DNA of 64,000 bases from an uncultured Bilophila sp. (GTDB taxonomy: Bacteria > Desulfobacterota > Desulfovibrionia > Desulfovibrionales > Desulfovibrionaceae). Shown here in pieces: positions 57,933 to 60,345 of this stretch; position 1 is the first letter of the stretch; the number at the start of each line of letters is the position of its first letter. Where the stretch lies: assembly GCF_902373525.1 (NCBI RefSeq), contig NZ_CABKMN010000005.1; one strand, given 5' to 3'. The position numbers and the translations under genes were made by a program. Under the pieces are notes generated by a model. That model did not search any database, was not told the DNA's origin, and saw only the letters and a program-made list of their open reading frames with translations.

Positions 57933-58045
57933 CATATACTCCTTGATTGCGTATGAGACGCTGCGTCTCATTTTCATATGATTGTTTCGATGCCGTAGCA
58001 GCATCTTGTGACGTACTTATAGGTATACGCACCGTAAAAACCTAG

Positions 58046-58080
58046 ACACGATCCTCTTGAATACTTGCCTGATCCTTTCA
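58046..58080 (-). promoter_or_regulatory. Conserved upstream motif, copy A (direct AGGATC repeats), ~110 nt before the small secreted-protein gene
   Basis: Gene-sense sequence GTGAAAGGATCAGGCAAGTATTCAAGAGGATC. Copy B at 60313-60345 reads GTGAAAGAATCAGGCAAAGAATAAAGAGGATC (27/32 identical). Both are preceded by GTATGAC. Confidence 0.45.
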
Positions 58081-58507
58081 CCCAATACGCATGGTCATAC
58101 AAAAAAGGAAAAGCGCACCGTGTCTACTGTTGACAGGGTGCGCTTCATGGTTTTTTGATCGCTTTCAACGTGCAGACAACACTTCTTCAACGGCATTGCG
58201 TGACGCTTTCATCTTCTTGAAGGAGCGCAACGGACACGCAACATCCCCTCCGGCGAAACCGCATTCGCCAGCCTTTACGGCCATCCGCAAAGAACCCTTC
58301 CGGCAGGTATCGCGGAGGCCCTTCATGCGGAGGAAAAGACGCCATGCTCTCCTCATGCGCCTGAGCCGCACGCTTCAAAAATTCCGCACGGGGAACGCCT
58401 CCTCCGGGTCGTAGCGGTCGGATGCCGTTCCCGCATTGACATTTGTTCGTGGGCGAACTAAAGAAGGGAACACCCCATCCGTTCGCCCACGAACCAAATG
58501 AGCCGCC

Positions 58508-58981
58508 ATGAACGAACACTACGACACCCACGCCGTCATCGCCCTGATCGCCTCCATCCGCGAACAGGCCAATCTGTTTCTTGTCCGCGCCCTCTCGGAA
58601 CGCGGCATCACGGACCTTCTGCCCGCCCACGGGGCCGTCCTGAACGCCTTGTTTCAGCGGAGCCCCGTCCAGATGAACGAGCTGGCGGAAGCCATCGGTC
58701 GAAAAAAGAACACCGTCACCGGCCTGATCAAGACGCTTGAGGAACGGGGCTACTGCCGCCGGGAACCCGATCCGCAGGACGCCCGAGCGCAGCTTGTCGC
58801 CCTGACGGACAAGGGCGAAACCGTCCGCGCGGAACAGGCGGCCATTTCCGAAAACCTGCTGAAACGAGTGTGGGAAGGCGTCGGGGAACCGGAACGGCAA
58901 TCCTGCGTCGACGTCCTCCGCACCATCCTCCGCAACCTGCGGGATGCCGCCGATACGCCGCAGACGCGGGAACGCCTCTAG
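58508..58981 (+). CDS. MarR-family transcriptional regulator
   Basis: 157 aa with winged HTH (MNELAEAIGRKKNTVTGLIKTLEERGYCRREPDPQDARAQLVALTDKG). Confidence 0.8.
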   Translation: MNEHYDTHAVIALIASIREQANLFLVRALSERGITDLLPAHGAVLNALFQRSPVQMNELAEAIGRKKNTVTGLIKTLEERGYCRREPDPQDARAQLVALTDKGETVRAEQAAISENLLKRVWEGVGEPERQSCVDVLRTILRNLRDAADTPQTRERL

Positions 58982-59052
58982 CCCACCCTTTCCGCAAACG
59001 CCGCACCCGTCCGGTGCGCCTCAAAACCGTATGCCAACCCAAGGAGGGCATC

Positions 59053-59469
59053 ATGGAACAGTCCACCGAGAAACAGCAACTGCTCGACACCGTCGACCTG
59101 TACCGCCGCTCCATCATTCACGCGGACGATCCGTCGCTTGCGGAACAGGTTTGGGCGGATACGCCGGACGTATCCTTTACCCACCCGCGCGGGCACGCAT
59201 CCGGGTGGCAGGCGATCAGGCGGAACTTCTACGGCAAGACGATGGGAGAGACGTTTTCAAAACGGGAACTCACGCTGGTCGGTACGCCCGTGATCCAGCT
59301 TTACGGAGACGCCGCGGTGGTTGAATTCGAATGGGATTTCGTGGCGACCGTGCGCGCGGACGGCAGCCTGCGGCATACGACCGGGCGCGAAAGTCAGGTC
59401 TACGTGAAGCGGCCCGAAGGCTGGCGTCTCGTACACGTCCACTATTCCGGACCGGCAACCACCGCCTGA
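59053..59469 (+). CDS. NTF2-like/SnoaL-like domain protein (DUF4440-like)
   Basis: AAGGAGG RBS then ATG at 59053. 138 aa with the cone-shaped alpha+beta NTF2 pattern (LLDTVDLYRRSIIHADDPSLAEQVWADTPDVSFTHPRG...VEFEWDFVATVRADGS...WRLVHVHYS). Confidence 0.65.
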   Translation: MEQSTEKQQLLDTVDLYRRSIIHADDPSLAEQVWADTPDVSFTHPRGHASGWQAIRRNFYGKTMGETFSKRELTLVGTPVIQLYGDAAVVEFEWDFVATVRADGSLRHTTGRESQVYVKRPEGWRLVHVHYSGPATTA

Positions 59470-59592
59470 GCGTCCCCACGGCAACGAAACAAGCAACGGC
59501 GCGGCGCACGTCTTTCCGATGCGCCGCGCCGTCGGCACGTTGCCGTCTCAACGGACAGGGGCCGCCCCCTGCCCGGACGATCCCGACCGTTC

Positions 59593-60210
59593 TCAGTTCC
59601 GCTGCAAGCCGATCCTGTGCAGCCACGAGGTGACGTCGCCCTGCGCGTGACCGGATGCGCCGCCTCTGATCGCCAGCCCGTCCAGCACCGTGGCCTTCGG
59701 GCACAGTTCCCGGATATGGGACACGCTGCGTCCGAGTCCGCTGCCCTCATGGGTCATGAACGGCGCGATTGTCTTGCCGGAAAAATCGTACTCGGACAGG
59801 AAAGTGATGACCGGAGTGGCCACCGTGCCCCACCAGCAGGGCGAGCCCACCACCACGACGTCGTACGCCCCGAATCCCTCGATCTTCGTCTTCAGCGGCG
59901 GCTTGAACCCGGTTTCCAGTTCCCGCCGGGCCTGCTCCGTGGTGGCGCGGTAGGCTTCCGGATACGGCTGCACGGTCTGAAGCTCCACGATGTCGCCGCC
60001 GAGCTGCCTGCGGATTTCCTCCGCCACGGCGCGCGTGTTGCCGGTACGGGAGTAGTATACGGTCAGTATCTTGAGGCTGCCGGGATCGGCGGCGAAAGCC
60101 GTCCCCGGAAGCAGCCGGGACGCCAGCCCTACAAACGCTCCGGCAAAGGCCGACTTCAGGATATTCCGTCTGGACAGGATGATTTCATTGTTGCGCGTAT
60201 GCTTGCTCAT
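59593..60210 (-). CDS. Tat-exported flavodoxin-family protein
   Basis: ATG at 60210. Twin-arginine signal MSKHTRNNEIILSRRNILKSAFAGAFVGLASRLLPGTAFAA. Flavodoxin-like core (KILTVYYSRTGNTRAVAEEI, VVVGSPCWWGTVATPV). Confidence 0.8.
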   Translation of the reverse strand: MSKHTRNNEIILSRRNILKSAFAGAFVGLASRLLPGTAFAADPGSLKILTVYYSRTGNTRAVAEEIRRQLGGDIVELQTVQPYPEAYRATTEQARRELETGFKPPLKTKIEGFGAYDVVVVGSPCWWGTVATPVITFLSEYDFSGKTIAPFMTHEGSGLGRSVSHIRELCPKATVLDGLAIRGGASGHAQGDVTSWLHRIGLQRN

Positions 60211-60312
60211 AGCGATTTCCCTCTGGGTAACGACGTTCCTTGATGGAGTTTTCCGACTCCATCTCCTTGATGAAACGAACATACCCGGAGCCATCGCCGA
60301 AAGGGAGATACG

Positions 60313-60345
60313 ATCCTCTTTATTCTTTGCCTGATTCTTTCACGA
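60313..60345 (-). promoter_or_regulatory. Conserved upstream motif, copy B, ~105 nt before the Tat-flavodoxin gene
   Basis: See copy A. Same orientation relative to the downstream gene. Confidence 0.45.

Follow-up and report, generated by a model that had tools for sequence, protein, structure and literature searches.

Two exported-protein genes of an uncultured Bilophila sp. share a direct-repeat element that is a likely operator of a YqhC-like AraC/XylS-family activator

Direct half-sites positioned next to a weak -35 hexamer represent the class II arrangement of AraC/XylS-family regulators, as exemplified by AraC at araI and XylS at Pm. Here we analyzed a stretch of 64,000 nucleotides (nt) from an uncultured Bilophila sp. 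(assembly GCF_902373525.1, contig NZ_CABKMN010000005.1; this whole stretch is referred to as the window), in which a 32-nt motif stands upstream of two genes coding for exported proteins, a small secreted cysteine-containing protein and a flavodoxin of the twin-arginine translocation (Tat) type. Among described systems, the closest counterpart of this motif is found in Escherichia coli at the target of YqhC. This AraC/XylS-family protein, when purified, binds only the yqhC-yqhD spacer in genomic SELEX (systematic evolution of ligands by exponential enrichment) and has been placed in the single-target class of regulators (PMC8249747). The genes yqhD and dkgA are activated by YqhC upon exposure to glyoxal and furfural (PMC5297802), and aldehyde biosensors make use of the yqhD promoter (PMC6115493). 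The latter source describes the yqhD promoter as sigma-70 dependent and quotes its -10 (CACAAT) and -35 (TTGAGA) hexamers from Lee et al. 2010.

A motif search of the 64-kb window returned exactly two matches, each of them on the minus strand; 100 dinucleotide-preserving shuffles of the window gave no match. The 32-mer of copy A is GTGAAAGGATCAGGCAAGTATTCAAGAGGATC (58050-58081, minus strand) and that of copy B is GTGAAAGAATCAGGCAAAGAATAAAGAGGATC (60312-60343, minus strand); by direct reading they are identical at 27 of 32 positions, which bears out the preliminary description of a shared 32-nt motif in front of two exported-protein genes, and each copy is oriented toward its own downstream gene. 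Putative operator A covers 58043-58081 (minus strand) with two direct half-sites of 13 nt each, AGGATCAGGCAAG (58076-58064) and AGGATCGTGTCTA (58055-58043), while putative operator B covers 60305-60343 (minus strand) with half-sites AGAATCAGGCAAA (60338-60326) and AGGATCGTATCTC (60317-60305). Both are exact pattern matches; among the same-species contigs that span operator A, nearly all retain it, and operator B is invariant across four strain contigs. The direct-repeat character of the half-sites had been recognized correctly, whereas their spacing, initially put at about 20 nt, is 21 nt between the AGGAT cores of either copy. Likewise, the motif had been placed 105-110 nt upstream of the start codons, whereas 117 nt separate the end of copy A from the ATG at 57932 and 101 nt separate the end of copy B from the ATG at 60210. 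When the upstream regions of both target genes were aligned, similarity was limited to the motif block and its 3' extension, GT.TCT. The sequence GTATGAC, described earlier as preceding each copy, is present at both, at unequal distances (14 and 22 nt); as a part of the element it was ruled out, being found only at the two window sites of 51 and absent from the other 49.

Within the species, the flavodoxin, SnoaL-like, MarR and small-protein genes occur in the same order in 19 of 20 loci from same-species gut-metagenome contigs, and nearly all of these contigs retain each motif copy that they cover. Strain-to-strain conservation extends over the 700 nt in front of the flavodoxin gene, copy B included, and differences in gene content begin only beyond this stretch. 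Flavodoxin orthologues with 64-73% identity on three unrelated contigs, one of them a low-GC sequence, carry the same element ~90-110 nt upstream of their start codons.

For comparison with other genomes, a degenerate pattern, AGRATNNGGCAANNANTNNNNAGRATNGTNNCT, was derived from five sequences and scanned against a species-representative genome collection, for which approximately one chance match was estimated. The scan returned 47 genome loci, nearly all of them in Desulfobacterota (Mailhella, Bilophila, Desulfovibrio, Syntrophales and Syntrophobacteraceae) and a few in metagenome-assembled genomes (MAGs) labelled Shinella, Rhodospirillaceae, Planctomycetaceae, Acidobacteriota or Nitrospirota; neither copy of the window was among them. 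All matches in these loci share extra conserved positions outside the pattern, and several Mailhella genomes have two or three motif sites each. In other genomes, the motif is most often followed by a gene coding for Flavodoxin_4; the remaining downstream genes code for Tat-signal flavin mononucleotide (FMN) reductases, Cupin_2, CMD-family, LarB-like AIRC and DUF362 proteins, as well as Zn-dependent alcohol dehydrogenase, aldehyde-oxidase-type 2Fe-2S subunits and alpha/beta hydrolase. This gene set resembles the YqhD/DkgA-type detoxification set, and the presence of the motif before further redox and detoxification genes in relatives upholds the earlier proposal of a small regulon. In a Bilophila MAG (locus L027, 1339-3292) a motif-like site precedes each of three consecutive transcription units, coding for a Tat-signal aldo-keto reductase (15.8 bits), a small CxxC secreted protein (57 bits) and a membrane protein (14.2 bits), which suggests a clustered, exported branch of the regulon. 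The motif also stands before LarB-like genes in Mailhella, an unexplained link to nickel-pincer cofactor genes.

The genes neighboring the motif in other genomes point to a particular regulator family. A profile built from open reading frames (ORFs) adjoining the motif and searched in 8-kb loci revealed an orthologous AraC-family protein of ~300 amino acids (aa), with the Pfam domains AraC_N (PF06719) and HTH_18, in 34 of the 47 motif loci. The regulator gene is directly divergent at 18-149 nt from the motif in 25 of these 34 loci and lies 1.3-2.1 kb downstream of the motif in five (four labelled Mailhella); in one locus it is directly upstream on the same strand, and in one the motif stands before the regulator gene itself. 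The association holds in the opposite direction as well. A metagenome scan with the regulator alignment yielded 80 loci found by the protein alone (39-99% identity), 74 of which had at least 250 nt of upstream sequence and were counted. A site was accepted when the best matrix match was above the null 95th percentile (6.3 bits) and was placed on the divergent strand, no more than 400 nt upstream of the regulator start, and such a site was present in 57 of the 74 loci; in 12 more a significant site was located elsewhere, e.g., directly after the regulator gene. The consensus of the regulator-adjacent sites reads tGgAggATcAGGCAAgaAtt..gcAGgAtcg.tctAc, and the 13-nt half-site AGGATyrGnCwA is conserved across the 51 pattern-derived and the 57 regulator-derived sites. 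With the matrix made from the regulator-adjacent sites, copy B scores 33.4 bits and copy A 30.5 bits, the next best window match reaches 4.6 bits, and the maximum among 100 shuffles (per 64 kb) is 14.1 bits. No further motif site above background was found in the window with either matrix.

Within the genus, the regulator is present in Bilophila wadsworthia, where one site lies on the divergent strand at 94 nt upstream of it and a second site stands before the flavodoxin gene. In this type of locus (L031, L155) the regulator gene is divergent from a series coding for CMD, DUF362/Fer4, LarB, LarC, a protein of unknown function, flavodoxin and FMN reductase. One record labelled 'uncultured Bilophila sp.' carries the regulator gene, too. 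The AraC_N regulators (P0165-P0284) are ~70% identical between Bilophila and Syntrophales or Syntrophobacteraceae, an identity unusually high across orders, which may reflect horizontal transfer together with the operator. Literature searches on PF06719 and on a possible Desulfovibrio AraC-flavodoxin regulon returned no description of the motif, and the binding motifs reported for GliR (PA3027) are unrelated to it.

The described relative of these regulators, YqhC of E. coli, is 33% identical to them, and its target promoter contains the motif. The yqhC-yqhD spacer has a single site, GGAGAAATAGGCAAGACATTGGCAGAAATGAGCAT, which is oriented toward yqhD and scores 29.1 bits with the regulator-site matrix, a value reached by 0 of 500 shuffles. 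It has a central GGCAAGA..ATTGG and two AGAAAT cores with a spacing of 21 bp; from the end of the second core, 28 nt remain to the published yqhD -10 and 5 nt to the published -35. The regulator, regarded as unknown in the preliminary description, is now pointed to as a YqhC-like AraC-family protein by the two-way co-localization and by this promoter match. The two systems are alike in the AraC_N and HTH_18 architecture that the relatives' regulators share with YqhC, in the same motif equally placed relative to the published -35 and -10, in the regulator gene typically divergent from its target, and in redox or detoxification enzymes as targets. They differ in several respects. The Bilophila window sites have no adjoining regulator gene and at least two targets, whereas YqhC is a single-target regulator; the Bilophila targets are exported (Tat flavodoxin and small cysteine protein), whereas YqhD and DkgA are cytoplasmic reductases; and the host here is an anaerobic gut Bilophila.

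The position of the element relative to putative promoter hexamers was also conserved. In the non-redundant set of motif sites, ~71% by weight (~26 of 36.8) have a TAnnnT box at 28-31 nt past the second AGRAT core, and the peak, at offset 29, accounts for 16.7 of the weighted total. Sequence reading combined with this offset predicts for the 89-aa secreted protein gene a -10 of TATAAG (58016-58021, minus strand) and a transcription start near 58009 (minus strand), the corresponding putative -35, TAGGTT (58044-58039, minus strand), being a poor match at a 17-nt spacer. For the flavodoxin gene, the predicted -10 is TATGTT (60278-60283, minus strand), the predicted start is near 60271 (minus strand), and the putative -35, TCCCTT (60306-60301, minus strand), is again a poor match at a 17-nt spacer. 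The promoter-proximal half-site overlaps the putative -35 by ~2 bp, and the geometry of the predicted hexamers in the window matches that of the published yqhD -35 and -10. A sigma-70 promoter and terminator scan revealed no canonical promoter for either target gene, which, along with the poor -35 hexamers, fits an activator-dependent site abutting or overlapping the -35.

We consider it likely, with a probability of roughly 85%, that each copy serves as the operator of a YqhC-like AraC/XylS-family activator (AraC_N plus HTH_18), which would be encoded outside the window and presumably elsewhere in this genome. According to the proposed mechanism, two protomers would bind the two direct 13-nt half-sites (AGGATyrGnCwA), whose 21-bp period corresponds to two helical turns and would present both half-sites on the same face of the DNA. 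With the promoter-proximal half-site abutting the weak -35 (overlap ~2 bp), the bound activator would recruit sigma-70 RNA polymerase to the TAnnnT -10 situated 29 nt downstream of the second AGGAT core, by class II activation as with AraC or XylS, and the small secreted cysteine protein and the Tat-exported flavodoxin would be co-induced. By analogy with YqhC, a reactive aldehyde or another electrophile probably acts as the inducer. The element shares with the sites of AraC (araI1-I2) and XylS (Pm) the two direct half-sites, the 21-bp period and the proximal half-site overlapping a weak -35; it differs from them in half-site sequence, the regulators differ in their N-terminal domain (AraC_N, PF06719, as opposed to the arabinose-binding domain of AraC), and, unlike at araI1-I2, no distal looping site is evident for the window copies. 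Most likely, this is an ordinary activator-dependent promoter element that involves no new regulatory principle or kind of system.

Several points weigh against assigning the two copies to a YqhC-like activator. All of the support is comparative, and the aldehyde or electrophile signal is drawn from the analogy with YqhC only. The sites that make up the second matrix were located with the first, pattern-derived matrix, and the two matrices are not fully independent. A profile search of the 64-kb window gave no match to the regulator gene at E<10, and the gene is not tied to the species of the window, the Bilophila carriers found being B. wadsworthia and the one 'uncultured Bilophila sp.' record; the contigs that encode P0169, P0170 and P0300, the nearest homologues of the regulator, either resemble B. 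wadsworthia or belong to other samples. Furthermore, what PMC6115493 describes in the yqhD promoter region bound by YqhC is a 24-bp palindrome and a SoxS-like box instead of direct repeats. Direct reading of this palindrome, ATTTCTCCAGCACTCTGGAGAAAT, reveals that its right arm is the first direct repeat.

Regulators of other types, including those favored at the outset, were weighed against these data. A two-component response regulator of the OmpR/PhoB, NarL or LytTR type might be expected to use such an element, since direct repeats abutting a -35 are typical of response regulators, and the window contains a Response_reg plus GerE protein of the NarL type (46701-47357). The element also resembles the LytTR-type sites of AgrA, ComE and YpdB, which consist of ~9-nt direct repeats with a ~12-nt spacer immediately upstream of the -35. 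However, the NarL-type gene lies 11 kb from the motif and is unlinked to it, and its homologues occur, at no fixed position, in only four of the motif-ascertained loci (L021-L071), although no search aimed at LytTR genes was made. By comparison, 34 of the 47 loci contain the AraC_N regulator, which is also supported by the reciprocal scan, and the OmpR/NarL-type operator suggested in the preliminary description appears very unlikely. Its second suggestion, an operator of the MarR-family repressor encoded at 58508-58981, drew on the position of this gene next to and divergent from copy A; the gene also lies between the two target genes. The divergent orientation is correct, and 427 nt, including a terminator-like hairpin, separate its ATG (58508) from copy A. 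Among the loci L021-L071 a MarR homologue appears in one, at 2.7 kb from the motif; MarR sites are usually palindromic, unlike the direct repeat seen here; and the MarR gene has an inverted repeat of its own. Control of the motif by MarR is scarcely credible on these grounds.

The fixed distance from the motif to a conserved downstream box, along with the conserved GTATCT adjoining the -35 position, might also be understood if the motif were a promoter element read directly by an alternative sigma factor of the extracytoplasmic function (ECF) type. With a conserved block that extends over ~38 nt upstream of the -35, the motif greatly exceeds the length of a sigma element; the downstream box is sigma-70-like (TAnnnT, 17-nt spacer), and PMC6115493 reports the homologous E. 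coli promoter as sigma-70 dependent. No sigma-factor gene was noticed adjoining the motif, although no systematic search for one was made, and we regard direct reading by a sigma factor as extremely improbable. The location of the motif upstream of both genes would also be accounted for by a generic dispersed repeat or by a leader or riboswitch acting as cis-regulatory RNA, and hairpins are possible in both predicted 5' untranslated regions (UTRs). Nevertheless, both the predicted -10 and, in E. coli, the published start site are downstream of the motif; the RNAalifold consensus energy on 29 diverse copies was 0.0, equal to that of column shuffles; and an Rfam scan of the region returned a tRNA and sub-threshold noise alone, with no family for the motif. 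A generic repeat is excluded by the occurrence of only two copies in 64 kb, oriented and upstream of genes in every case. An RNA or repeat origin retains hardly any likelihood, and the YqhC-like activator is the reading retained here.

The first of its two presumed target genes (57663-57932, minus strand; ORF and translation) encodes the 89-aa protein with a Sec-type signal, whose C-terminus, TCGICK, contains a CGIC sequence. Its Pfam matches are sub-threshold, consisting of a weak DUF2946 match alone, and its orthologue in the Bilophila MAG L027 has the motif upstream as well. The second (59593-60210, minus strand) encodes a 205-aa Flavodoxin_4 protein (PF12682, E = 3.7e-24) with the twin-arginine signal SRRNILK. 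The earlier calls of both genes, as a secreted cysteine protein and a Tat flavodoxin, stand on the basis of ORFs and Pfam. A perfect 9+9 palindrome, ATGAGACGC-T-GCGTCTCAT (57953-57971), is located in the predicted 5'UTR of the 89-aa protein gene, ~10 nt before its ribosome-binding site, and an 8-bp hairpin can be folded in the predicted 5'UTR of the flavodoxin gene.

The interval between copy A and marR contains a 17-nt hairpin (58111-58145) flanked by A/T runs on both strands, which resembles a bidirectional terminator; no convincing gene is visible in this 427-nt stretch. The inverted repeat of the MarR gene (58442-58497) has 17-nt arms, TTTGTTCGTGGGCGAAC and GTTCGCCCACGAACCAA, that are 94% complementary and separated by 22 nt, and 10 nt separate its end from the MarR start codon; it is a candidate MarR operator unrelated to the motif. 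On the other side of the locus, a tRNA-Leu(CAG) gene was located at 61212-61298 (minus strand). More than ~700 nt upstream of the flavodoxin gene, strains vary in gene content (M23 peptidase, ScdA/hemerythrin, or Fic/VbhA; loci L001-L003), and the region 60345-61300 may represent a hot spot for integration. A T-run in the ORF at 60472-60813 varies in length between strains, so that this ORF may be non-coding.

The assignment replaces an "unknown regulator" with a specific, testable candidate, by which two exported proteins of a gut sulfidogen would fall within a YqhC-type stress regulon. The resulting family-wide operator model, two AGGATyrGnCwA half-sites 21 bp apart and adjoining the -35, could be used for the prediction of AraC_N regulons in many genomes and suggests the exact bases to mutate in the E. 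coli yqhD promoter. More tentatively, and with the odds against it, E. coli and several other bacterial groups, as judged by MAG labels, would appear to share one operator-regulator pair with a near-invariant GGCAA core, which the gut Bilophila might have redeployed as a multi-operon regulon, an extracytoplasmic redox or aldehyde-detoxifying module composed of the Tat flavodoxin, a Tat-signal aldo-keto reductase, the small CxxC protein and a membrane protein. In that case the small cysteine protein would represent a new periplasmic partner in electrophile defence, and for the E. coli YqhC site a direct-repeat reading would be preferable to one as a palindrome plus a SoxS-like box.

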